Origin: Escherichia coli | GTDB lineage: Bacteria; Pseudomonadota; Gammaproteobacteria; Enterobacterales; Enterobacteriaceae | Length of the DNA stretch: 64,000 bases | Reading direction: 5' to 3' (one strand) | Assembly (NCBI RefSeq): GCF_016903815.1 | Contig: NZ_CP069973.1 | In this document: positions 11,082 to 57,600 of the stretch, in pieces | Layout: each line of letters begins with the position of its first letter | Numbering within the stretch: the stretch's first letter is position 1 | Notes under the pieces: model-generated | Seen by the model: only the letters and a program-made list of their open reading frames with translations | What the model was told of the DNA's origin: nothing | The model's database searches: none | Position numbers and translations under genes: made by a program

Positions 11082-11794
11082 TTGTGCACAGAAAACCCCC
11101 AGCTAGGCTGGGGGTTCCGGAAAGCTTTCAGCTTTAAGCCAGTTATTAAAACCCCTTTTGATTTGTTAAAACACCTTGCGGTCTGGCAACTGCAAGTGTC
11201 AAACAAGAAATCAAAAGGGGGTCCCAATGGGGAACGAAAAGAGCTTAGCGCACACCCGATGGAACTGTAAATATCACATAGTTTTTGCGCCAAAATACCG
11301 AAGACAGGTGTTCTACAGAGAGAAGCGTAGAGCAATAGGCAGTATTTTGAGAAAGCTGTGTGAGTGGAAAAGTGTACGGATTCTGGAAGCTGAATGCTGT
11401 GCAGATCATATCCATATGCTTGTGGAGATCCCGCCCAAAATGAGCGTATCCGGCTTTATGGGATATCTGAAAGGGAAAAGCAGTCTGATGCTTTACGAGC
11501 AGTTTGGTGATTTGAAATTCAAATACAGGAACAGGGAGTTCTGGTGCAGAGGGTACTACGTCGATACGGTGGGTAAGAACACGGCGAAGATACAGGATTA
11601 CATAAAGCACCAGCTTGAAGAGGATAAAATGGGAGAGCAGTTATCGATTCCCTATCCGGGCAGCCCGTTTACGGGCCGTAAGTAACGAAGTTGGATGCAA
11701 ATGTCAGATCGTGTGCGCCTGTTAGGGCGCGGCTGGTAAGAGAGCCTTATAGGCGCATTTGAAAAACCTCCGGCTATGCCGGAGGATATTTATT
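11082..11794 (+). mobile_element. IS200-type insertion sequence, copy 1
   Basis: 713-bp block identical to 27980-28692; left-end hairpin cccccagctaggctggggg; single Y1 transposase gene; absent from this intergenic site in E. coli K-12 as I recall it. Confidence 0.9.
11227..11685 (+). CDS. tnpA: IS200/IS605-family Y1 (HUH) transposase TnpA
   Basis: 152 aa from internal Met with RBS aaaggggg; HUH motif HIHMLVEIPP; ORF-track 5' extension judged non-coding. Confidence 0.9.
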   Translation: MGNEKSLAHTRWNCKYHIVFAPKYRRQVFYREKRRAIGSILRKLCEWKSVRILEAECCADHIHMLVEIPPKMSVSGFMGYLKGKSSLMLYEQFGDLKFKYRNREFWCRGYYVDTVGKNTAKIQDYIKHQLEEDKMGEQLSIPYPGSPFTGRK

Positions 11795-27950: not shown

Positions 27951-27981
27951 CCCCGCGACATGCCGTGTCGCGGGGATTTTT
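27951..27981 (+). terminator. Rho-independent terminator after bhsA
   Basis: ccccgcgacatgccgtgtcgcggggattttt; IS200 copy 2 begins in its T-tail. Confidence 0.7.
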
Positions 27982-28692
27982 GTGCACAGAAAACCCCCAG
28001 CTAGGCTGGGGGTTCCGGAAAGCTTTCAGCTTTAAGCCAGTTATTAAAACCCCTTTTGATTTGTTAAAACACCTTGCGGTCTGGCAACTGCAAGTGTCAA
28101 ACAAGAAATCAAAAGGGGGTCCCAATGGGGAACGAAAAGAGCTTAGCGCACACCCGATGGAACTGTAAATATCACATAGTTTTTGCGCCAAAATACCGAA
28201 GACAGGTGTTCTACAGAGAGAAGCGTAGAGCAATAGGCAGTATTTTGAGAAAGCTGTGTGAGTGGAAAAGTGTACGGATTCTGGAAGCTGAATGCTGTGC
28301 AGATCATATCCATATGCTTGTGGAGATCCCGCCCAAAATGAGCGTATCCGGCTTTATGGGATATCTGAAAGGGAAAAGCAGTCTGATGCTTTACGAGCAG
28401 TTTGGTGATTTGAAATTCAAATACAGGAACAGGGAGTTCTGGTGCAGAGGGTACTACGTCGATACGGTGGGTAAGAACACGGCGAAGATACAGGATTACA
28501 TAAAGCACCAGCTTGAAGAGGATAAAATGGGAGAGCAGTTATCGATTCCCTATCCGGGCAGCCCGTTTACGGGCCGTAAGTAACGAAGTTGGATGCAAAT
28601 GTCAGATCGTGTGCGCCTGTTAGGGCGCGGCTGGTAAGAGAGCCTTATAGGCGCATTTGAAAAACCTCCGGCTATGCCGGAGGATATTTATT
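27980..28692 (+). mobile_element. IS200-type insertion sequence, copy 2
   Basis: Identical to 11082-11794 by eye, same orientation. Confidence 0.9.
28125..28583 (+). CDS. tnpA: IS200/IS605-family Y1 transposase TnpA
   Basis: Same 152-aa protein as copy 1. Confidence 0.9.
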   Translation: MGNEKSLAHTRWNCKYHIVFAPKYRRQVFYREKRRAIGSILRKLCEWKSVRILEAECCADHIHMLVEIPPKMSVSGFMGYLKGKSSLMLYEQFGDLKFKYRNREFWCRGYYVDTVGKNTAKIQDYIKHQLEEDKMGEQLSIPYPGSPFTGRK

Positions 28693-41070: not shown

Positions 41071-42117
41071 TTAACGTCCTGCTTTCAGCTTCTGATAATA
41101 CTCTTCATAAATGCTGCTGGCTGCGCCAACGTCATTCTGCCATTCACCATTTTTAATGGTTTCAGCATCCGGGTAGAGCGTTTTATCGTTCGCCACTTCC
41201 GGACTTAACAGCTTACGCGCCGCAAGGTTTGGCGTTGGATAACCGATAGTTTCTGCAACCTGTTTTGCCACATCCGGGCGCAGCAGGAAGTTGATCAATT
41301 TCAGCGCGCCTTCTTTGTTTTTGGCATTTGCCGGGATCGCCAGGCTGTCCATCCAGAAAATGCCGCCTTCTTTCGGCCACACCACATCAATTGGCGTACC
41401 CGCCTGGCGTGCAACGAAAGCAGAACCGTTCCAGATCATGCCGAGGTTAACTTCGCCTTCCATATACGGGTTAGCGGGGTTATCGGAGTTAAACGCCGCG
41501 ACGTTTGGCATCAGTTTTTTCAGCTCGTTGTATGCAGCTTCAATCTCTTTCGGATCGGTGGTGTTACCGGAGTAGCCCAGCTTACGCAGCGCCATCTGGA
41601 ACACTTCACGGGCATCGTCGGTCAGCAGCAGGCTGCCTTTGTACTCAGGTTTCCACAGATCGGCCCAGCTGGTAACGGATTTCGGATCCACCGCATCACC
41701 GTTAACGCCAATCGCCGTTGCACCCCAGATATACGGAATGGAATAGTCGTTATTCGGGTCAAACGGCTTGTTGAGCATGTCTGGATCGAGGTTGCTGAAA
41801 TTGCTTAACTTCGACTTGTCGATCTTCTGGATCATCCCTTCTTTACGCATTTTATCGACGTAATAGGTTGAAGGAACCACCAGGTCATAGGCACCGTCTT
41901 TGTACGTTTTCAGCTTCGCGTACATGGTTTCGTTCGACTCGTAAGTCGAATAGATAACCTTAATACCGGTTTCTTTGGTGAACTGTTCAAGCAGTCCTGG
42001 CGGCACGTACTCGGTCCAGTTGTAGAAATACAGCGTGTTGTTGTCATCGGCGTGAGCGGCGCTCATGCCCAGTGCCAGAGCACCCGCCGCGAGCAGGTGG
42101 CGTGACCATTTTTTCAT
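41071..42117 (-). CDS. potD: Spermidine/putrescine ABC transporter periplasmic binding protein
   Basis: 348-aa ORF with signal peptide. Confidence 0.93.
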   Translation of the reverse strand: MKKWSRHLLAAGALALGMSAAHADDNNTLYFYNWTEYVPPGLLEQFTKETGIKVIYSTYESNETMYAKLKTYKDGAYDLVVPSTYYVDKMRKEGMIQKIDKSKLSNFSNLDPDMLNKPFDPNNDYSIPYIWGATAIGVNGDAVDPKSVTSWADLWKPEYKGSLLLTDDAREVFQMALRKLGYSGNTTDPKEIEAAYNELKKLMPNVAAFNSDNPANPYMEGEVNLGMIWNGSAFVARQAGTPIDVVWPKEGGIFWMDSLAIPANAKNKEGALKLINFLLRPDVAKQVAETIGYPTPNLAARKLLSPEVANDKTLYPDAETIKNGEWQNDVGAASSIYEEYYQKLKAGR

Positions 42118-42908
42118 TTAACGTCCCCTGTGTTACCTTTCGTTTTATCACGAGCAATAAGCTGGCTGGCAATTACCATCACCAGCGACAGCACCAGTAA
42201 TATGGTTGCCAGCGCGTTAACTTCCGGCGATACGCCGACTTTGACCATCGAATAAATTTTTAACGGCAGAATTTCATAGCTTGGTCCGGTGACGAACGAA
42301 GAAACTACTACATCGTCCATCGACAGGGTAAAGCTTAACACCCAGCCCGCCGCTACCGCTGGCATTGCCAGTGGCAGAATGATTTTTCGCAGAATGGTAA
42401 ATTCGCTGGCACCGAGATCTTTCGCCGCTTCCAGCATTCGCACGTCAAAACCTTTCAGGCGCGAATACACCGTCACCACCACAAACGGCAGGCAGAAGGT
42501 GATATGCGAGAACAGCAGCGACCAGAAGCCAAGCTGAATACCCAGCAGCATAAACAGCACCAGCAGAGAAATCGCCATCACAATATCTGGCGACATCATC
42601 ACCACAAACAGCATTCCGCTAACGAACGGCTTACCGCGAAAGCGATAACGGTACAGCGCAACTGCAGTCAGTGAACCGATAAGCGTAGCAAACGTCGCTG
42701 AAAACACCGCCATCGTCAATGAATGCTGAGCTGCCTGCAACAGACTGTCGTTGTTCATCAGCAGGCTATACCATTTAGTGGTAAAACCCTGCCAGTTGAT
42801 GCCAAAGCGCGAGCTGTTGAACGAGTTCACAATCAAAATAATGATTGGAATATACAGGTACGCGTAGATAGCGGTCATAAAACCGCCGCGAAGCAGTCGA
42901 CCGATCAT
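42114..42908 (-). CDS. potC: Spermidine/putrescine ABC transporter permease
   Basis: 264-aa ORF; the upstream partner potB is not where expected. Confidence 0.93.
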   Translation of the reverse strand: MIGRLLRGGFMTAIYAYLYIPIIILIVNSFNSSRFGINWQGFTTKWYSLLMNNDSLLQAAQHSLTMAVFSATFATLIGSLTAVALYRYRFRGKPFVSGMLFVVMMSPDIVMAISLLVLFMLLGIQLGFWSLLFSHITFCLPFVVVTVYSRLKGFDVRMLEAAKDLGASEFTILRKIILPLAMPAVAAGWVLSFTLSMDDVVVSSFVTGPSYEILPLKIYSMVKVGVSPEVNALATILLVLSLVMVIASQLIARDKTKGNTGDVK

Positions 42909-43074: not shown

Positions 43075-44193
43075 TCAAATAACCAACTTAACCCATTCCT
43101 GACCTCGAGTATCGTTATAGCGATCGGTGGTTGCCTGGACTTTATGTCCTAGTAATGTTTTTGTATCGATACCCTGTGCACGGTACAGCCGTTCTGATAG
43201 AGAGCGTTGTTCATGAAATGTTGGCGGAGTTTTTCCTGCTGGTGGAATTATCCCAGCCAGATCCCGTGCTTTGGCAAAGTAGTCGCTCAGGTTGTCTTTA
43301 CTCATCGGCTTCGGTTGTTTCTGGTGCCGACTATGGATTAGATATGGACTTAATATTCTGTCTCGGCACCCATCAATAACTTCTTTTAACGTTATCCCAA
43401 TGGCATCACAGCGTAGTGTAAGCGGTAACGCCAGACGCATTCCGGTTTTTCCCTGGGTGATATGCAAGTGTTCGTTCCACACATCTGAAAAACGCATGTG
43501 GCAAATGTCATCACGGCGCTGACCAGTAACAATCGCAAGAAGCATTGCGTTACGGATAAAGTGTTTTTCAGGCGTTGCATTGTAAATTTTTTGCCAGTCT
43601 TCCATGGTGAGCCTGGCTCTGGTTACTTTAGGGATCGGTTTACGGGTAGCCTCCGGAGGATTCCATCCAGGAGGAACTTCCCCTGCATGCTGTGCTTCTT
43701 TATAAATATCAACCCATAATCCACGATTTACTCTCGCTGTGCTGACCATGTCTTTATCCAGCCACTCATCCAGTATTAATGCAAAGTCTCTTACTTCCAG
43801 TTCTTTCAATGGGTGGTTTCCCAGACGGGAAACCAGGTATGCAGCCATTCGAGTTTTTTCTTTGTGAGTTGTAGCTGCAATATCTCCATTTTTCAGTCGC
43901 GTGTCCTGTATTTTCAGATATCGATCAACCCATGCCTTTAATCTGATACCCCGACGTTTTGTTGCTGACGGACTTTCATCAATTTTGCGCATGAAATATT
44001 CAGCTTCTGCTGCAGCTATTCGCTGATTGGCTGTGGAAGCGATTTTTTCTGCCTTACCTTTGTCTGTTCCGAGTCCGTGAAATTTTCCAGTCACAGGATT
44101 TTTATACTGGTAGTAAACTCTGCCAGTTCTGCGATCAAACTTTTCGTAAAGACCGGCTACGTCAGTGCTGTTTTTTCGTGGCCTCGGTGACAT
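43075..44193 (-). CDS. int: Lambda-family tyrosine integrase
   Basis: 372 aa; C-terminus HEQRSLSERLY...LGHKVQATTDRYNDTRGQEW matches the lambda Int catalytic R-H-R-Y region. Confidence 0.92.
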   Translation of the reverse strand: MSPRPRKNSTDVAGLYEKFDRRTGRVYYQYKNPVTGKFHGLGTDKGKAEKIASTANQRIAAAEAEYFMRKIDESPSATKRRGIRLKAWVDRYLKIQDTRLKNGDIAATTHKEKTRMAAYLVSRLGNHPLKELEVRDFALILDEWLDKDMVSTARVNRGLWVDIYKEAQHAGEVPPGWNPPEATRKPIPKVTRARLTMEDWQKIYNATPEKHFIRNAMLLAIVTGQRRDDICHMRFSDVWNEHLHITQGKTGMRLALPLTLRCDAIGITLKEVIDGCRDRILSPYLIHSRHQKQPKPMSKDNLSDYFAKARDLAGIIPPAGKTPPTFHEQRSLSERLYRAQGIDTKTLLGHKVQATTDRYNDTRGQEWVKLVI

Positions 44194-44492: not shown

Positions 44493-46949
44493 TTAAAAAT
44501 CAGCCTGACTCGGGATCAGTTTTTGCCAGATAACTGAAACGTATTTTGCCTGGTAACGGGCGTCATCAAGTGCATTATGGCGCTCACCTTCGAATGGAAT
44601 AGCCGTTCTGGCATCGAAGTCTATGGCTTTCCCCAGCTCAACGATTGTGCGTACATCGCGATCGTTGTAGTAACGCCACGGGCAGGGGATCCCCTGCCGT
44701 TCGTATGAACGGCGCAAAATCGTGTTGTCGAAGTTGGCTCCATTTCCCCAGACCTGAACAAAAAATTCGCCGGAGTTTTCGTCGATAAATTCCCGCAATT
44801 GTAACAGTGCATCATCTAACGGGATTTCATCGGTCATAATGGCAGATTGCGCTTCGCGTGATTGCTTAAGCCACCATTTAATGGTGTCCCGATCAATGAC
44901 TCCGCCAGCAGTTTCCAGATCGATAGTCTTACTAAATTCCGGTCCCATATCTCCGGTTTGCGGATCGAAAAATATTGCACCTATTGAGATAATCGGGGCA
45001 TCTGGATTTTTTCCCATGGTTTCAAGGTCGATCATTAGATGGTCACACGTCCCGCTGGTGGATGTGCCTTTATGATGACCGTTCACCTTAACTGAGTGAT
45101 CTGTCGCCTCGCCAGTTTCACTATCGCTATCGTGATGCTGATTGCCGCCAGGGTTCTCCTTGTGTGGATGTTCAGTGCCTTCCATTTCCTCCGGATCATT
45201 TTCCTGAACTTCAACCTGATTCTCTTCATTGAATGTTTCCTGGTATGTTGCGTCGCCCATCACCGCGCCACAATCAGGGCAGTTGCCGCCGCCGGTCTGA
45301 CCGCAGGCGGTGCAGATCTTTTCCGGTTCCTGTTGCACTACTGGTTCAGGTTGTTTCGTTTCTGGCTCGTTTTGTAACGCATTTGGGCTGTTTTGTTCCG
45401 CTTTCTGGCCGTTCTGTTCCGTTTCTTGCTGGTTCTGGTTCACAGAATCGCGGGTTTCCATCCCCTTGACCCATTTCGGATCATTCGGGTCGCTAATCCC
45501 TGCAACAAATTCTCCGCGAGAGGCCGCAAGCAACTTATCGGCGTCAGGCTGGCTGATATTGGCTGCCTGCATAATTTTGTTTACTTCGTCAGCGGTAACT
45601 TTTACCTGATTAACCGGATCTATCTGTGCCTGAGTATCCAGCGATTGCGTGTCCTGGCGATGTTCAGTTGTATTCGGCTCCATTGCTTCAGTCGTTGCCT
45701 GTTCATCTGCCATTGCGTCAGACGGTTGTGATTTTTCCTCATTATTTTTTTCTTCTTCTGTTTCGCGTTCAGCAGCCAGTTCGCGGTTAACTTCTTCCAG
45801 GATATCTTTTTCCGGTGTATGTCGTGCAGCAGCGAGAGTTTCCTCGGTAGGGTTCTCGTGATCAGTTTCCGTCAAATAGGCGTTGATATACCCCTGAAGG
45901 CGTCCCGGGTAGTGATAAAATTCAGGGTGTGCGCTTCGGATAAGTGCAAAAATAGCGGCGCGGGAATAATCCAGGATACCCGGGATTGCGCGAAGTGCTG
46001 CGGACCATTCTTTGAACGGACTTTCTTTCTTCCGGACGACTTCTTTTGCGCGACGATAAACGCTGCCCGGAATTTCATAAATATTAAAATCCATCGGAAG
46101 TGTGGCCGCTGCAATCTCCACATCCAGCGTATCGAAGGTGTGTACTAAATTCGGATTGCGATCGGTTTTGTTCCCTCCACCGGCATTAGCACCGGAAGCC
46201 GTGCGGGTGATGCGTGAAACACGATTTCCTTTCATCCACTCTTTTGTCAGCAGACCGCGATCGGTGTAGTCAGCGCCCAGGTATGCTTCGAAAAAAGCAG
46301 TCATCAGTCCCAGGTCTGAATTACCAGGATTAGGGAAAACTTTGTCCGTGTCACGAACCAGTTTGTGGAGATCGCGAATTTCCAGCGGTTCGAGTTGCGC
46401 TGCTTTATTTGAGATGGCCAGCGCGGTAACGGCGGGAAGTTTTTCATCCTGTGCGTTATGTAATGTGCGCAGTTCGTCCCGCGAAACGTGTGTGATCGGT
46501 TTTTCGCTGCCGTGCTGTGCCAGCCATCGAACAGGCAGAATCTGACCTGAAACCGGCAGGAGCATGTTCTCCTCAATCTCAGCCATGTCTTCGCCGTTGA
46601 CGTTGGTATTGTCAGTGCTGGCTGGTTTATCCTGAACAGAGGGCGAGGGCGCGATAAGTACCATTGTGATACCATCTTCACCGCCCTTTTCGTATCGGTT
46701 GCAGAATTCGGTATCAAACACGCCTTCCGGAGGAAGGTCATTCACAACGGGTAAATGGACGCGAACAGGTTTTTTAAAATCCTCTTTGTCAAATCCGGCA
46801 TCGTCCATTGCGACAACACCGCGTGATATTGCAACCGATAATTTTTTTGCTGTGCGCCAGTAAAAACCGCCTTTAATTCCAAGACGTTTTCTGATTTTGT
46901 CATTTTTGGCTTCGTAATATAGTGCAATTTCTTCTTTATCAGTGCTCAT
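44493..46949 (-). CDS. Phage exonuclease with C-terminal DEDDh (DnaQ-like) 3'-5' exonuclease domain
   Basis: 818 aa; C-terminal motifs IDLETMG and HNALDDARY; long acidic low-complexity middle region; C-x2-C...C-x2-C zinc ribbon. Confidence 0.75.
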   Translation of the reverse strand: MSTDKEEIALYYEAKNDKIRKRLGIKGGFYWRTAKKLSVAISRGVVAMDDAGFDKEDFKKPVRVHLPVVNDLPPEGVFDTEFCNRYEKGGEDGITMVLIAPSPSVQDKPASTDNTNVNGEDMAEIEENMLLPVSGQILPVRWLAQHGSEKPITHVSRDELRTLHNAQDEKLPAVTALAISNKAAQLEPLEIRDLHKLVRDTDKVFPNPGNSDLGLMTAFFEAYLGADYTDRGLLTKEWMKGNRVSRITRTASGANAGGGNKTDRNPNLVHTFDTLDVEIAAATLPMDFNIYEIPGSVYRRAKEVVRKKESPFKEWSAALRAIPGILDYSRAAIFALIRSAHPEFYHYPGRLQGYINAYLTETDHENPTEETLAAARHTPEKDILEEVNRELAAERETEEEKNNEEKSQPSDAMADEQATTEAMEPNTTEHRQDTQSLDTQAQIDPVNQVKVTADEVNKIMQAANISQPDADKLLAASRGEFVAGISDPNDPKWVKGMETRDSVNQNQQETEQNGQKAEQNSPNALQNEPETKQPEPVVQQEPEKICTACGQTGGGNCPDCGAVMGDATYQETFNEENQVEVQENDPEEMEGTEHPHKENPGGNQHHDSDSETGEATDHSVKVNGHHKGTSTSGTCDHLMIDLETMGKNPDAPIISIGAIFFDPQTGDMGPEFSKTIDLETAGGVIDRDTIKWWLKQSREAQSAIMTDEIPLDDALLQLREFIDENSGEFFVQVWGNGANFDNTILRRSYERQGIPCPWRYYNDRDVRTIVELGKAIDFDARTAIPFEGERHNALDDARYQAKYVSVIWQKLIPSQADF

Positions 46950-47026: not shown

Positions 47027-47236
47027 TTACGGTGCTGTTTTAAGCCCCGCCGGGATTTCGTTATTGTCCATGTGAATAACTTTATCGACCGGATAACAGT
47101 TGCCGGGAATTTTCTGTTCCGCTGCGGCAGCCATGCATTCTTTCATTGAGTTGTACATGCCGGTGATTGCATCAAGCGACTCACCAGTATTGAGATGTAC
47201 AGTCAGAATGAGTACGAATAATGTGTTCATCGCCAC
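47027..47236 (-). CDS. Small membrane protein, YdfD-like by position (putative host-killing/lysis protein)
   Basis: 69-aa ORF with N-terminal hydrophobic segment, immediately downstream of the DicB-like gene as ydfD is in Qin; identity not verified. Confidence 0.45.
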   Translation of the reverse strand: MAMNTLFVLILTVHLNTGESLDAITGMYNSMKECMAAAAEQKIPGNCYPVDKVIHMDNNEIPAGLKTAP

Positions 47237-47415
47237 TCTCCGAAAATACCGAGTTTAAGAAGGGCAATTCTGGAGAGTATGGAATTGTCATTCAGCAGGT
47301 AGGGTTCATATTTTCTCATATTGATTGCATCCTCGGTGAAATCCCTGTTACTGAGCAGAACACCAATATTAAAGCACCCGTCAGACGTATTAACGTTTGG
47401 TAGTGACGTTTCCAT
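47227..47415 (-). CDS. dicB: DicB-like cell-division inhibitor
   Basis: 62 aa; LPNVNTSDGCFNIGVLLSN..FTEDAIN.RK closely matches recalled E. coli DicB. Confidence 0.75.
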   Translation of the reverse strand: METSLPNVNTSDGCFNIGVLLSNRDFTEDAINMRKYEPYLLNDNSILSRIALLKLGIFGEWR

Positions 47416-47425
47416 TATCGCGTCC

Positions 47426-47983
47426 TCAACAATGAATTTTTAGCAATTGCTCCACAGTCATATTTTTAATTGCGCTCCGGTTTACAAGAGTCCATCCTTG
47501 TTTCTCCAGATAAAACCGGAAGGTATCCAGGGTGCAGACCATTGCGCCGTCAGGAACGGTTTCAGTGAATTTGATATTGCCGTGTTCGTCGAGACGGATA
47601 ACCAGGGTGCGTCCGTCCCCGTGAATCATTTTGTCGGGAGACGGGGCGTTATTCTGGCGCAGTTCTTCCTCCATGCGATCGAACTCAGCGATGTAGGCTT
47701 CTTTGAAAGTTGCGGCTTTTTTACCTGTGAACCCCATCACCAGGAAAACGAAGCCGTTTTTGGTGATTTGGTACATGGGGCGTTTTTCGCCTTTGGCGTC
47801 GGTGTAGGTAACGGGCGTAAAATTGCGCTCGTTAAAATCTTCAGAGCATTCTAGCGTTTCAATTTTGCGCAGAACGTCCTTGTGCATTTTGCGGAAGAAC
47901 TCTGCAACCGCAACAGACGTAGTGACAGCGCGACCATTTTCGATGGTTACGTCAGGGTGAGAAAGGGTAGGGATAGTAGCCAT
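47426..47983 (-). CDS. rha: Rha-family phage regulatory protein
   Basis: Start at internal ATG with RBS gagg (MATIPTLSHPDVTIENGRAVTTSVAVAEFFRKMHKDVLRKIE); the ORF-track 5' extension crosses a terminator-like hairpin. Confidence 0.7.
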   Translation of the reverse strand: MATIPTLSHPDVTIENGRAVTTSVAVAEFFRKMHKDVLRKIETLECSEDFNERNFTPVTYTDAKGEKRPMYQITKNGFVFLVMGFTGKKAATFKEAYIAEFDRMEEELRQNNAPSPDKMIHGDGRTLVIRLDEHGNIKFTETVPDGAMVCTLDTFRFYLEKQGWTLVNRSAIKNMTVEQLLKIHC

Positions 47984-48463
47984 AATGGCAGCCTCTTGGT
48001 TGAGTATTAATAACTCACCACCAAGGTTTTCCACGACCATAAGGGTGGTGAGGCGTACAGGGGTGGAAATACCGGTCAACCAAGAATCCGGCCAGCCTTG
48101 CAGCTGCCCTGCACGCCCCACCATAATCTGAATGTGGCTGTGCTTGACGCATAAAAAAACCGCCTGAGCGCGGTTATGCGCTTGATTGAATTCCGGGTTT
48201 CCACGCCCGGCACCCGTTTTATGAGGTGCAGGTGCACTATAATTCCACCCGTTCTGGTTTTCAATAGCTACATTCAACATTTTCTCTTACCTTTCATCAC
48301 CGAAGTGAACTTTGTTGATGCGGTGCCTGGTGCCTCCAGGTGACGTTAACCAGTTAACAATTAACGCCGGATACAGAGAATCCACCCATAACACTGTTTT
48401 TGGTTTTAACTGTTCCGCGTGCGCTTAGCCGCATTCACCGCATCACAAAATTCACTTTAAAAA

Positions 48464-48515
48464 GGGTGGCAGAGCAGTCACGGAGTAGAACTGATGCCAC
48501 CAAAGACTACACATG
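48464..48515 (-). ncRNA. dicF: DicF-like small RNA
   Basis: Minus-strand ggtggcatcagttctactccgtgactgctctgccaccc plus U-tail matches recalled DicF 3' two-thirds at about 34 of 38 nt; 5' end approximate. Confidence 0.6.
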
Positions 48516-48810: not shown

Positions 48811-49197
48811 TTAATGATTAATTGATATTTTGTTGTTTGATTCAACTTTCCCATCGGATGTGTGATGCTTTAAATCACAGGAATTAATACTGCTCGCTGT
48901 AAAATGATTTTCAAGGGGAGCTATTCGAATCCCTTTCTTTTTCATTAACAAGCCAAATCCTTTATTAATGATGTCCATTAATTCCAGGAAGTATTTTTCA
49001 TGTAAATCCTGGTTATCAGAGAGCTGCTTCTCTTCGTACAGACCGATAAAGGCACGACGCACGTTACCGGATATAGTATCGATGGTTTCTTTTTCTACGG
49101 TACTCAGGTCAAGAGTCGCCAGTTGAGAGCGAACCACATTCGATGCCATTTCCTGGAATGGTACTGGTAAATCTTTAAATTCCATCGTCAACCTCAT
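48811..49197 (-). CDS. Hypothetical protein, early-left operon
   Basis: 128-aa ORF whose start overlaps the stop of the upstream small gene; 3' half markedly AT-rich; no recognised motif. Confidence 0.55.
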   Translation of the reverse strand: MRLTMEFKDLPVPFQEMASNVVRSQLATLDLSTVEKETIDTISGNVRRAFIGLYEEKQLSDNQDLHEKYFLELMDIINKGFGLLMKKKGIRIAPLENHFTASSINSCDLKHHTSDGKVESNNKISINH

Positions 49198-49349
49198 CAG
49201 TCAGTGTTTCTGGTTAACCAGCGACGCGCGCCAGCTTCAGTTTGAAACGTTTTGCTTCTGGTATACGTCATCGCGGTAAACGTGCCGTCCTGGTTGGGAA
49301 ACACGCCGCATACCAGAGATTCGTTGTTGCCAAGATCGATAGTATCCAT
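49197..49349 (-). CDS. YdfA-like small protein
   Basis: Start placed at internal MDTIDLGNNESLV...TAMTYTRSKTF, which resembles recalled Qin YdfA; the ORF-track start at 49403 is also possible. Confidence 0.5.
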   Translation of the reverse strand: MDTIDLGNNESLVCGVFPNQDGTFTAMTYTRSKTFQTEAGARRWLTRNTD

Positions 49350-49403
49350 GCTGACCTCATTTCCCCTTAACGCCAGGGTAGCGGAACTGTTTGCTGAGAA
49401 CAC

Positions 49404-49555
49404 CGTGCGGTGTCTTGATGAGTAGAATTTAGAATAACCTAAGAATTATGGTCAAGCTTTTTGTGTAGAAAAACCTAAGTTTTTTGATGTAAAAAACACA
49501 AGCATTTGAAAGTTTGTGCTTTTTATTACAGAGAGTGGCGAAAAAAAAGGGAGGT
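49404..49555 (-). promoter_or_regulatory. Early-left promoter/operator region (PdicB analogue)
   Basis: 152-bp AT-rich gap with repeated aacctaag and ttgatg/ttgtgtag motifs. Confidence 0.4.
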
Positions 49556-49963
49556 TTATTTATTTGCGCTTCTTTTGCGAGCTTTGAGTAGTTCTTCAAA
49601 AAGTTTGTTGAAATTCTCAACTCGAGCACGCATCTCTGACAACAGAGCCTTTTGCTCTGACTCAGGCAGTGCGTCGAACAGTTGAAGCAACTCTTTTTGA
49701 TCTTCTGTCAGATTAACTGGCTGATTATCTGGGATCGGTTCGCCTGGTTGCTTATCTTCATCTCCAAAAAGAAGCCAAGTCGGCGAGCACTGAAGCGCCT
49801 GGCTCAGTGCGAATAATCTCTTCCCCGCTGGCTGTGTTTCATCTCTTTCCCATTGAGAAATTGTTACGTGAGCCACTTTGACCAGCTTACCTAATGCGGC
49901 CTGAGACAGTTTTAATTTTTTACGCCTGTATAAGAGGCGAGCACCGAAGGTTTCGTTTTTCAT
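49556..49963 (-). CDS. dicA: DicA-type HTH (XRE) prophage repressor
   Basis: 135 aa; LSQAALGKLVKVAHVTISQWERDETQPAGKRLFALSQALQCSPTWLLFGDEDKQP and MRARVENFNKLFEELLKARKR closely match recalled DicA. Confidence 0.85.
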   Translation of the reverse strand: MKNETFGARLLYRRKKLKLSQAALGKLVKVAHVTISQWERDETQPAGKRLFALSQALQCSPTWLLFGDEDKQPGEPIPDNQPVNLTEDQKELLQLFDALPESEQKALLSEMRARVENFNKLFEELLKARKRSANK

Positions 49964-50039
49964 ATTAGGTAATTCTAATTTTTCTTGACTTAGGTTTCTC
50001 TACGATCTAGTTTCCTTAGGAAAATCTAAGGAGTTCGAT
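49964..50039. promoter_or_regulatory. Divergent repressor/cro promoter-operator region
   Basis: 76-bp gap with repeated cttagg/cctaag half-sites (acttaggtttc, ccttaggaaaatctaagg). Confidence 0.5.
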
Positions 50040-50267
50040 ATGTTGAAAATTGATGCTATAGCGTTTTTTGGCAGCAAAACAAAGCTTGCCAATGCCGCAG
50101 GAGTTAGGCTGGCAAGCGTTGCTGCATGGGGGAAACTGGTTCCTGAAGGTCGCGCGATGCGTCTACAGGAGGCATCCGGCGGGGAACTTCAGTACGACCC
50201 CAAAGTTTATGACGAATATCGTAAGGCAAAGCGGGCGGGGCGGTTGAACAATGAAAATCACCCCTGA
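50040..50267 (+). CDS. dicC: Cro-like regulator (DicC/YdaS family)
   Basis: 75 aa; FGSKTKLANAAGVRLASV...LVPEGRAMRLQEASGGELQYDPKVYDEY matches YdaS/DicC. Confidence 0.8.
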   Translation: MLKIDAIAFFGSKTKLANAAGVRLASVAAWGKLVPEGRAMRLQEASGGELQYDPKVYDEYRKAKRAGRLNNENHP

Positions 50268-56799: not shown

Positions 56800-56976
56800 A
56801 TAACTGCGGGTGCTTGAGGCTATCTGTCTCAGGCATGAACACCAAAAGGCAGATAGAGAAAAGCCCCAGTTAACATTACGCGTCCTGCAAGACGCTTAAC
56901 ATTAATCTGAGGCCATATCTATGCGACACATAGAGATTAGCCTCTTACGGACCGAAAGGTCAAGGAGAAGCAGGCT
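56800..56976. promoter_or_regulatory. hok mRNA leader with mok-like upstream ORF and expected antisense Sok region
   Basis: 19-codon upstream ORF (ATG 56921) whose TGA overlaps the hok ATG; hairpin gcgtcctgcaagacgc; Sok position inferred, not observed. Confidence 0.35.
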
Positions 56977-57132
56977 ATGAAGCAGCAAAAGGCGATGTTA
57001 ATCGCCCTGATCGTCATCTGTTTAACCGTCATAGTGACGGCACTGGTAACGAGGAAAGACCTCTGCGAGGTACGAATCCGAACCGGCCAGACGGAGGTCG
57101 CTGTCTTCACAGCTTACGAACCTGAGGAGTAA
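56977..57132 (+). CDS. hok: Hok/Gef-family type I toxin
   Basis: Hand translation MKQQKAMLIALIVICLTVIVTALVTRKDLCEVRIRTGQTEVAVFTAYEPEE (51 aa), essentially the HokD/RelF sequence as recalled. Confidence 0.85.
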   Translation: MKQQKAMLIALIVICLTVIVTALVTRKDLCEVRIRTGQTEVAVFTAYEPEE

Positions 57133-57348: not shown

Positions 57349-57600
57349 ATGATGAACATCGAAGAACTGCGTAAAATTTTTTGTGAAGATGGCCTCTATG
57401 CTGTGTGCGTTGAAAATGGAAATATTGTTAGCCATTACCGCATTGTGTGTTTGCAAAAAAATGGGGCTGCGTTAATTAATTTTGTGGATGCCCGAGTGAC
57501 GGACGGATTTATCTTGCACGACGGTGAGTTTGTCACTTCATTACAGGCATTGAAAGAGATCGGAATAAAAGCTGGCTTTTCTGCTTTTTCAGAAGAATAA
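57349..57600 (+). CDS. Hypothetical phage protein
   Basis: 83-aa ORF. Confidence 0.4.
   Translation: MMNIEELRKIFCEDGLYAVCVENGNIVSHYRIVCLQKNGAALINFVDARVTDGFILHDGEFVTSLQALKEIGIKAGFSAFSEE

Follow-up and report, generated by a model that had tools for sequence, protein, structure and literature searches.

A DicA-type repressor gene in an Escherichia coli lambdoid prophage is flanked on both sides by repeats containing the word cctaag or cttagg, and the locus raises the question of whether these repeats are the operators of an immunity switch. The initial annotation of this DNA had likened them to OR/OL operator sets, with one repressor controlling both the promoter of the cro-like gene and an early-left promoter of the dicB type. 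The answer reached here, for a window of 64 kb (the whole stretch of DNA that was analysed), is that the repeats belong to five sites of the form TTAGG-N4-TCTAA, and that these sites are very probably the operators of a P22/Qin-type immunity switch. The architecture and logic of such a switch are already known from Qin and P22. What is new, judging from the sequence, is the allele or specificity, with the distinct operator letters C-TTAGR…YCTAA-G.

Genes of the Immunity Region and the Prophage

The repressor gene (49556..49963, minus strand) encodes a protein of 135 amino acids with an N-terminal HTH_3 domain, which shares 63% identity over 131 amino acids with the DicA of K-12. Residues 2–69 match the N-terminal-domain structures of the P22 C2 repressor (1adr, 2r1j and 3jxb) with an E value of 1e-21 in phmmer. 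A Pfam-type domain search of the 135-aa protein returned HTH_3 as the sole domain, with no match to a Peptidase_S24 or RecA-cleavage domain. The C-terminal part is conserved as NFNKLFEELL, as in DicA-type repressors. It is short and helical, whereas P22 C2 carries a self-cleaving S24 domain, and SOS cleavage of the present repressor is therefore not expected. The K-12 DicA is likewise without the Ala-Gly cleavage bond (PMC10448788). Repression by DicA is relieved in K-12 by an antirepressor, the Rem protein (PMC10448788). A homolog of the Qin Rem is encoded at 57349..57597 (plus strand; 93% identity over 83 amino acids by tblastn), beside hokD as in Qin, and it offers a possible route for inactivating a non-cleavable repressor.

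The divergent gene, dicC (50040..50267, plus strand), is separated from dicA by 76 bp and encodes a Cro-type protein of 75 amino acids. This protein matches Pfam P22_Cro at 2.5e-13 and is 84% identical to the DicC of K-12. The order of genes leftward, 3′ of dicA, is ydfA/DUF1391, a 128-aa ORF, DicF, an isrK/C4/Rha block, dicB, a DUF1482 gene, an exonuclease, xis and int. The leftward operon opens with ydfA (49197..49349, minus strand; DUF1391 at 1.9e-27), whose RefSeq start is at 49349 and not at 49403. The gap downstream of the repressor gene, given previously as 49404–49555, keeps its right boundary and is extended on the left to an intergenic space of 49350–49555. Further along the operon are the gene of the DicF sRNA (48464..48515, minus strand; Rfam RF00039, 61 bits, E 6e-11), a Rha-family protein within the isrK/C4/Rha block (47426–48280) and the RefSeq-annotated cell-division inhibitor gene dicB (47227..47415, minus strand; Pfam DicB at 1.3e-32).

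E. coli chromosomes such as NZ_CP103521 match the window at 100% identity, and in them the prophage integrase adjoins potC. Of 5,426 complete E. coli genomes, about 750 (about 14%) carry the dicA allele at an identity of at least 95%, among them O157:H7, O55:H7, O145 and O111 strains. The allele is also found in the PPompW prophages deposited with Stx2a phages (LC5678xx records).

The Repeated Unit in the Two Gaps

A cctaag-type motif is repeated in both gaps, as had been claimed, and the four strings on which the claim was based are all present: acttaggtttc at 49988–49998, ccttaggaaaatctaagg at 50015–50032, ataacctaagaatt at 49435–49448 and aaaacctaagtttttt at 49470–49485. Of six copies of the hexamer CCTAAG/CTTAGG in the 64-kb window, four lie inside the two gaps (228 bp), two per gap. 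The hexamer is under-represented window-wide, with 6 copies observed against 17 expected from shuffles. The repeats are real, but the hexamer is only a half-site of a 14-bp imperfect palindrome, TTAGG-N4-TCTAA, which is the actual repeat unit and is present at five sites. As a candidate unit the hexamer was rejected because it is rarer than expected and misses one site, whereas the 14-mer palindrome covers all copies. The count of copies had to be revised in the same way. The two halves of the one palindrome at 50015–50032 had been counted as two copies, and the dicA-proximal copy at 49965–49978 had been overlooked because it reads ATTAGG and not CTTAGG. When every 5-N4-5 word in the gaps was enumerated without bias, TTAGG-N4-TCTAA and its one-base shifts again came out on top.

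Allowing at most one mismatch, the 14-mer has five matches in the 64-kb window, and all five fall inside the two gaps that flank dicA. There are no mismatches at 49965–49978 and 50016–50029 on the plus strand or at 49429–49442 on the minus strand, and one mismatch each at 49990–50003 (plus) and 49465–49478 (minus). Three of the sites lie between dicA and dicC and two lie 3′ of dicA over the leftward promoter, with both sets reading TTAGG…TCTAA in the direction away from the repressor gene. The centres of the right-hand sites are 25 and 26 bp apart, while the two left-hand sites are separated by 36 bp centre to centre (about 3.4 helical turns). The central 4 bp of the five sites are A/T at 19 of 20 positions.

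The gaps are AT-rich (33% G+C), and in promoter regions short words rich in A and T are readily repeated. Direct repeats with just two copies, moreover, are often due to chance. The similarity could on these grounds be a matter of chance in AT-rich intergenic DNA, or the functionless remains of duplication. Dinucleotide-preserving shuffles of the two gaps, however, gave 0.047 sites on average and 3 at most, and 0 of 20,000 such local shuffles reached five. No other site with at most one mismatch exists in the 64 kb. The sites also stay in place while their flanks diverge, and they covary with helices of the proteins, as described below. Shuffles, column conservation and helix covariation together effectively refute an origin by chance or as leftovers, the probability of which is negligible.

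At a threshold of two mismatches, there were 22 matches in the whole window against 35 expected, which is no enrichment and no halo of weak sites. The sole additional match of this kind nearby, with two mismatches, is located at 49920–49933 within the dicA coding sequence. Elsewhere in the prophage, too, this threshold brought up no convincing further operator. A full-text literature search for the exact 14-mer found no paper describing the operators of the present allele.

Probable Right-Hand Operators and the Predicted dicA and dicC Promoters

The site nearest to dicC, O_R1 (50016..50029, plus strand), has the sequence TTAGGAAAATCTAA and matches the 14-mer at the position of the K-12 operator Oc, of which it is the equivalent. 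A nearly perfect palindrome of 20 bp, TCCTTAGGAAAATCTAAGGA (50013–50032), has this site as its core. The predicted promoter of dicC, equivalent to PR, is located at 49985..50013 on the plus strand, with a −35 element TTGACT (49985–49990), a spacer of 17 nucleotides and a −10 element TAGTTT (50008–50013). Its start site is predicted near 50020 by homology to the K-12 promoter TTGACT-17-TATCTT, for which the dicC start site has been mapped by 5′RACE (PMC3441716). O_R1 spans this predicted start site and extends into the Shine–Dalgarno sequence of dicC. The middle site, O_R2 (49990..50003, plus strand; TTAGGTTTCTCTAC), is the equivalent of the Qin Om and departs from the 14-mer by a single change, A14 to C. 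It lies within the spacer of the predicted dicC promoter and touches the −35 element. O_R2 is conserved at all loci with the present type of repressor and is a good match to the 14-mer, whereas its K-12 equivalent is degenerate.

The third site, O_R3 (49965..49978, plus strand; TTAGGTAATTCTAA), is a zero-mismatch 14-mer and the equivalent of the Qin Oa and the P22 OR3. Its end is separated from the dicA ATG by 1 nt, and the site includes a candidate −10 element, TAGAAT (49972..49977, minus strand), of a dicA maintenance promoter that has been read from the sequence. There is no Shine–Dalgarno sequence upstream of the ATG at 49963, and the dicA mRNA would, if this −10 is used, be leaderless or carry a leader of 1–3 nt. 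In the P22 record, the 5′ end of the PRM transcript is 4 nt upstream of the c2 ATG. A consensus promoter scan called neither the dicA promoter nor the dicC promoter, with its weak −10 TAGTTT; the assignment of both relies on homology to K-12 and P22.

The centres of O_R3, O_R2 and O_R1 are 8.5, 33.5 and 59.5 bp from the repressor ATG. This is similar to P22, in which OR3, OR2 and OR1 are centred about 9.5, 34.5 and 57.5 bp from the c2 ATG and OR3 abuts that ATG in the annotation of the P22 record. In K-12, Oa is centred about 9 bp and Oc about 59 bp from the start codon of dicA. A 6-bp gap that appeared before Oc in a MAFFT alignment of the right gap with K-12 was an artefact; the true offset is 1 bp, and the distance from Oc to the ATG is identical. 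Three tandem imperfect palindromes thus lie between the repressor and cro genes and, on the promoter predictions, overlap the divergent promoters, as in an OR region of the P22 type.

Strong binding of DicA need not be expected at every copy, because in K-12 DicA did not bind in vivo to Oa or Om when these were cloned by themselves (stated in PMC3441716 as data not shown). By extension, only the C-flanked copies O_R1, O_R2, O_L1 and O_L2 might be DicA operators, with O_R3 conserved mainly as the −10 region of dicA and/or as a DicC site. O_R3 has A/T flanks, against C/G at the other four sites, and carries no class-specific flank in any allele examined (aa|t or at|ct). Its central ATTA is nearly invariant across specificity classes, as would suit a promoter element (TAGAAT/TAGCAT), and strong DicC binding has been found by ChIP at the dicA–dicC intergenic region (PMC11430063). 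Nonetheless, O_R3 is a zero-mismatch copy of the 14-mer, and the P22 OR3, in the same place, is annotated as a true repressor site. Positions 5 and 10 of O_R3 also change with the class of repressor and Cro (TTAGA..CCTAA versus TTAGC..GCTAA), which would be needless in a pure promoter element. The restriction of DicA to the four C-flanked sites is a doubtful possibility, though one to be taken seriously, and O_R3, with its A/T flanks, may by itself not serve as a site for DicA. The reading of all five sites as operators of the switch is kept in what follows.

Probable Left-Hand Operators and the Predicted Leftward Promoter

The promoter scan predicted a leftward promoter, equivalent to dicBp and PL, at 49426..49455 on the minus strand, with a −35 element TTGACC (49455–49450), a spacer of 18 nucleotides and a −10 element TAAATT (49431–49426). 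The promoter is conserved at related loci and resembles both the K-12 dicBp and the annotated PL of P22. O_L1 (49429..49442, minus strand; TTAGGTTATTCTAA), a zero-mismatch 14-mer, is situated between the −35 and −10 elements and overlaps the first 3 nt of the latter. The placement of an operator inside the leftward promoter is shared with Qin: the K-12 dicBp is built as TTGACC-N6-TTAGTCATGGCTAA-TCT and the promoter in the window as TTGACC-N7-site-ATT. The same build is seen in P22, where PL/OL1 is TTGACC-N6-TTAAGAAGTCTTAA-ATT. O_L2 (49465..49478, minus strand; TTAGGTTTTTCTAC) shows the same A14-to-C departure as O_R2 and is located just upstream of the −35 element. A third left-hand operator was sought in 49350–49555 at up to two mismatches and only these two sites were found, unlike the OL1–3 of P22; other dicA alleles likewise have two. 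Between dicA and this promoter, a hairpin followed by a U-run is found at 49490..49525 (minus strand; minimum free energy −11 kcal/mol, z −3.3, with 0 of 200 shuffles as stable). It is likely the intrinsic terminator of dicA, separating the gene from the leftward promoter.

The comparison with OR/OL operator sets holds in that the five sites overlap the predicted rightward and leftward promoters where the operators of Qin and P22 sit, but the arrangement is three plus two and not a pair of symmetric triplets. The control of both the cro-side and the dicB-type promoter by one repressor is in turn supported by homology to the K-12 system, which has been studied experimentally. For K-12 Qin, an analogy with lambda PR and PL has been drawn for repeats resembling operators, which are found at dicBp and, as Oc, Om and Oa, in the dicA–dicC gap (PMC10448788, which cites Bejar et al. 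1988 and Yun et al. 2012). Genetic evidence in K-12 shows that DicA recognizes Oc (TTGTTAGTCATAACTAACAA) in vivo, and this binding is lost when one A in the CTAA half of Oc is replaced by C; dicC is repressed and dicA activated by DicA (PMC3441716). Deletion of dicA derepresses dicBp 22-fold in K-12 (PMC10448788). The strongest ChIP-seq signal of DicC is at the dic locus, where sites have been inferred on either side of dicA, with the palindrome TT(A/C/T)G…C(G/A/T)AA (PMC11430063).

Comparison with Qin and P22

Judged by its genes and repeats, the locus has the features of a Qin-type DicA/DicC/dicBF module, namely the repressor, a divergent dicC, a ydfA-DicF-dicB operon and inverted-repeat operators. 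The gene order, dicC <- -> dicA -> ydfA … DicF, dicB, is that of Qin, as are the 135-aa repressor lacking a cleavage domain and the TTAG…CTAA core of the operators. The leftward operon nevertheless differs from that of Qin by an extra isrK/C4/Rha module. The prophage itself is apparently largely intact, with int, xis and replication genes, and lies beside potC and not at the Qin locus.

A further difference from Qin is in the operator letters. The operators of the window read C-TTAGR…YCTAA-G whereas those of K-12 read G-TTAGY…RCTAA-C, and the proteins show matched changes, SQA/AHVT in the window against TQR/SHVS in K-12. None of the K-12 sites is within one mismatch of the window consensus; they differ at positions 5 and 10 of the 14-mer and at the flanks. 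The locus therefore represents a different allele or specificity, and not a copy of Qin.

With P22 the locus shares a repressor N-terminal domain closely homologous to that of C2, three right-hand sites and 5-N4-5 operators with an A/T-rich centre. The P22 repressor recognizes an 18-bp site, contacting positions 2–7 and 12–17, and it prefers A/T steps in the uncontacted centre at positions 8–11. The sites of the window fit this geometry, including the A/T centre at positions 8–11. They differ from those of P22 in the half-site, which is TTAGR in the window and TTAAG in P22, and the leftward operon encodes DicF and DicB in place of antitermination functions of the N type.

The Proposed Switch

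The steps of the switch are set out by homology. For binding, the order of occupancy, the activation of dicA and the start points of the promoters, they are inferred from Qin and P22. A dimer of the DicA-type repressor would occupy each site through a helix-turn-helix like that of P22 C2, with one monomer per TTAGR half-site and the A/T-rich central 4 bp uncontacted. In the lysogen, DicA dimers would be present on O_R1 and O_R2 and on O_L1 and O_L2. Repressor on O_R1, at the start site, and on O_R2, in the spacer, would exclude RNA polymerase from the dicC promoter. From the same two sites, it would probably also stimulate the weak, nearly leaderless promoter of dicA. Occupation of O_L1 and O_L2 would turn off the promoter of the ydfA-orf-DicF-(isrK/C4/rha)-dicB-DUF1482 operon and keep the inhibitors of cell division silent.

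O_R3 overlaps the candidate −10 element of dicA, and its occupation, by an excess of DicA or more likely by DicC, would turn dicA off. DicC is expected to recognize the same sites with the opposite order of preference, which would result in a bistable switch. Once DicA is inactivated, DicC would be made, would prefer O_R3 and would shut off dicA. An antirepressor such as the Rem homolog is a likelier route to this inactivation than cleavage. Pairwise cooperativity in the style of lambda cannot be assumed, because there are two left-hand sites with a spacing of 36 bp against 23–26 bp in the right-hand set. Since DicA is without the C-terminal oligomerisation/peptidase domain of P22 C2, both cooperativity and activation are uncertain.

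The exact coordinates of the probable operators and predicted promoters are now available for an allele that probably controls DicF and DicB and is carried by about 14% of complete E. coli genomes. Their value is mainly for annotation, and the understanding of how such switches work is unchanged. The allele has its own operator letters, which helps in predicting which co-resident prophages cross-repress. The alleles also provide a natural series of matched repressor and operator variants for studying specificity in the P22 C2 fold.

Conservation and Covariation across Related Loci

Two sets of related loci were used. About 80 loci from IMG/VR, all with the same recognition helix, were usable for footprinting and not for covariation, and the covariation set consisted of alleles from E. 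coli genomes and phage records. In the left gap (43 distinct sequences), identity to the window is 97.9% in the columns of the operator cores and 80.1% in the remaining columns. Invariant columns there number 13 of 20 in the cores and 16 of 132 elsewhere. In the right gap (21 distinct sequences), invariant columns make up 24 of 30 core positions and 13 of 35 non-operator positions. At the most diverged loci, where the repressor is 75–86% identical and the terminator and flanks are unrelated, the sites are still in place.

The letters of the operators change together with the recognition elements of the proteins. A third helix starting with AHVT is found with TTAGR…YCTAA in the window, in the related locus L077, in BL21, in strain E1, in O111:H2 and in the Stenotrophomonas phage BUCT708. 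The repressor of BUCT708 is only 59% identical overall, yet it carries AHVT and this operator form. The helix SHVS is found with TTAGY…RCTAA, in the K-12 and O145 alleles. At the second helix, TQR goes with a G flanking TTAG and SQA, the type of the window, with a C. It is because the operators of the SQA type have this C that the repeats were first seen as cttagg/cctaag. The BL21 Qin-like, E1, O111:H2 and BUCT708 alleles resemble the window in the recognition helix VAHVTISQWE and in the purine at operator position 5. They differ from it in having TQR at helix 2 and operators of the form G-TTAGR…YCTAA-C, whereas the window has SQA and the inverse C/G flanks. DicC sorts alike at its own recognition helix (LASLYSWKG versus LASVAAW-G). 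The variable operator positions are, in P22 numbering, 2/17 and 7/12, at the edges of the contacted range 2–7/12–17. The Cronobacter phage phiES15, with 52% identity and a different helix, has the palindrome ACTAAC-N4-GTTAGT and is not placeable in a scheme of three classes. The existence, clustering, positions, conservation and covariation of the sites are direct observations, as is the homology of the proteins.

Covariation also bears on whether a host factor, and not the prophage repressor, recognizes the sites. The candidates for such a factor would be YjdC, a reported regulator of DicA targets when DicA is absent, or H-NS/Cnu acting on AT-rich DNA. Cnu–H-NS antagonises DicA binding at the homologous region of K-12 (PMC3441716), and the base composition of the gaps would suit these proteins. 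A fixed host protein would not, however, produce operator letters that covary with the DicA and DicC helices of prophages within one host species, and the palindromic 5-N4-5 geometry fits the fold of P22 C2. Recognition by a host factor is accordingly very improbable, and the sites are taken to be those of the prophage proteins.

It has been considered, finally, whether the covariation defines at least three DicA immunity specificities, generated by two interchangeable elements of base read-out. One element would be residue 22 in P22 numbering, an Arg or Ala where helix 2 begins, reading the outermost of the contacted bases, G or C at operator position 2/17. The other would consist of residues 31 and 34 in helix 3 (Ala/Thr or Ser/Ser), reading the innermost of these bases, a purine or pyrimidine at position 7/12. 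DicC would discriminate at the inner position only. This proposal is plausible but tentative, and is given not quite an even chance. If it is true, heteroimmunity to both K-12 Qin (class I) and the BL21 type (class II) would be expected of the allele of the window (class III, with SQA, AHVT and C-TTAGR). Several prophages carrying dicBF could then share one genome with none repressing another, while DicC could still allow cross-talk between elements of classes II and III.

Probable Operator Sites and Operator Classes

The operators predicted around the DicA-type repressor gene dicA follow the consensus TTAGG-N4-TCTAA, and one copy in each set departs from it. In both cases this is the second site, O_R2 (49990-50003) in the gap between dicA and the divergent Cro-type gene dicC, and O_L2 (49465-49478) at the leftward promoter. 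The departure is identical in the two, the final A being replaced by C (TCTAC), and it is kept in nearly all close relatives. O_R2 and O_L2 may be selected weaker sites, like OR2 and OL2 of lambda.

Comparison of dicA alleles (loci L087-L090, L083 and L001) sorts the DicA-type repressors into at least three classes by operator: G-TTAGY, G-TTAGR and C-TTAGR. These classes match residues of the repressor in helix 2 (TQR/SQA) and helix 3 (SHVS/AHVT). The DicC proteins would distinguish only the inner operator position.

The dicA Start Region

In the stretch 49963-49978, O_R3 lies 1 nt from the dicA start codon, which is preceded by no Shine–Dalgarno sequence, and a candidate -10 element, TAGAAT, is found 8 nt upstream of the codon. 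This arrangement suggests that the repressor mRNA is leaderless or near-leaderless. The c2 gene of P22 is alike, as the annotated 5′ end of its PRM transcript is 4 nt before the ATG.

The Leftward Operon and the Rem Homolog

A minus-strand block of the leftward operon (47426-48394), located between DicF and dicB, comprises a Rha-family/Ash ORF (48280..47426) together with isrK (48153-48229, Rfam) and the C4 antisense RNA (48041-48128). Just upstream of these, RefSeq calls a truncated dicB fragment (about 48311-48394, minus strand). The block resembles an insertion, into a dicBF operon, of a c4/antirepressor module of the P1 immI type, and would therefore be under the DicA-controlled promoter.

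In the Qin prophage of K-12, Rem is an antirepressor of DicA. The window encodes a homolog (57349-57597, plus strand; 93% identity over 83 aa) that matches no Pfam family. A hok/sok locus, with its sok RNA at 56808-56979, lies immediately upstream of this gene.

Other Elements

The prophage integrase gene (43075-44193) directly adjoins potC (42114-42908), and the leftmost 43 kb of the window belongs to the chromosome, with the rne 5′ UTR, SraB and the fab, mfd, lol and pot genes. In an 818-aa minus-strand ORF (44493-46949), a long middle part, acidic and of low complexity, separates an N-terminal Exonuc_VIII region from a C-terminal Rv2179c-like 3′-5′ exonuclease domain. Two exactly identical 713-bp IS200-like elements (11082-11794 and 27980-28692; Y1_Tnp transposase, Pfam 5e-38) are present, and each also matches Rfam STnc490.
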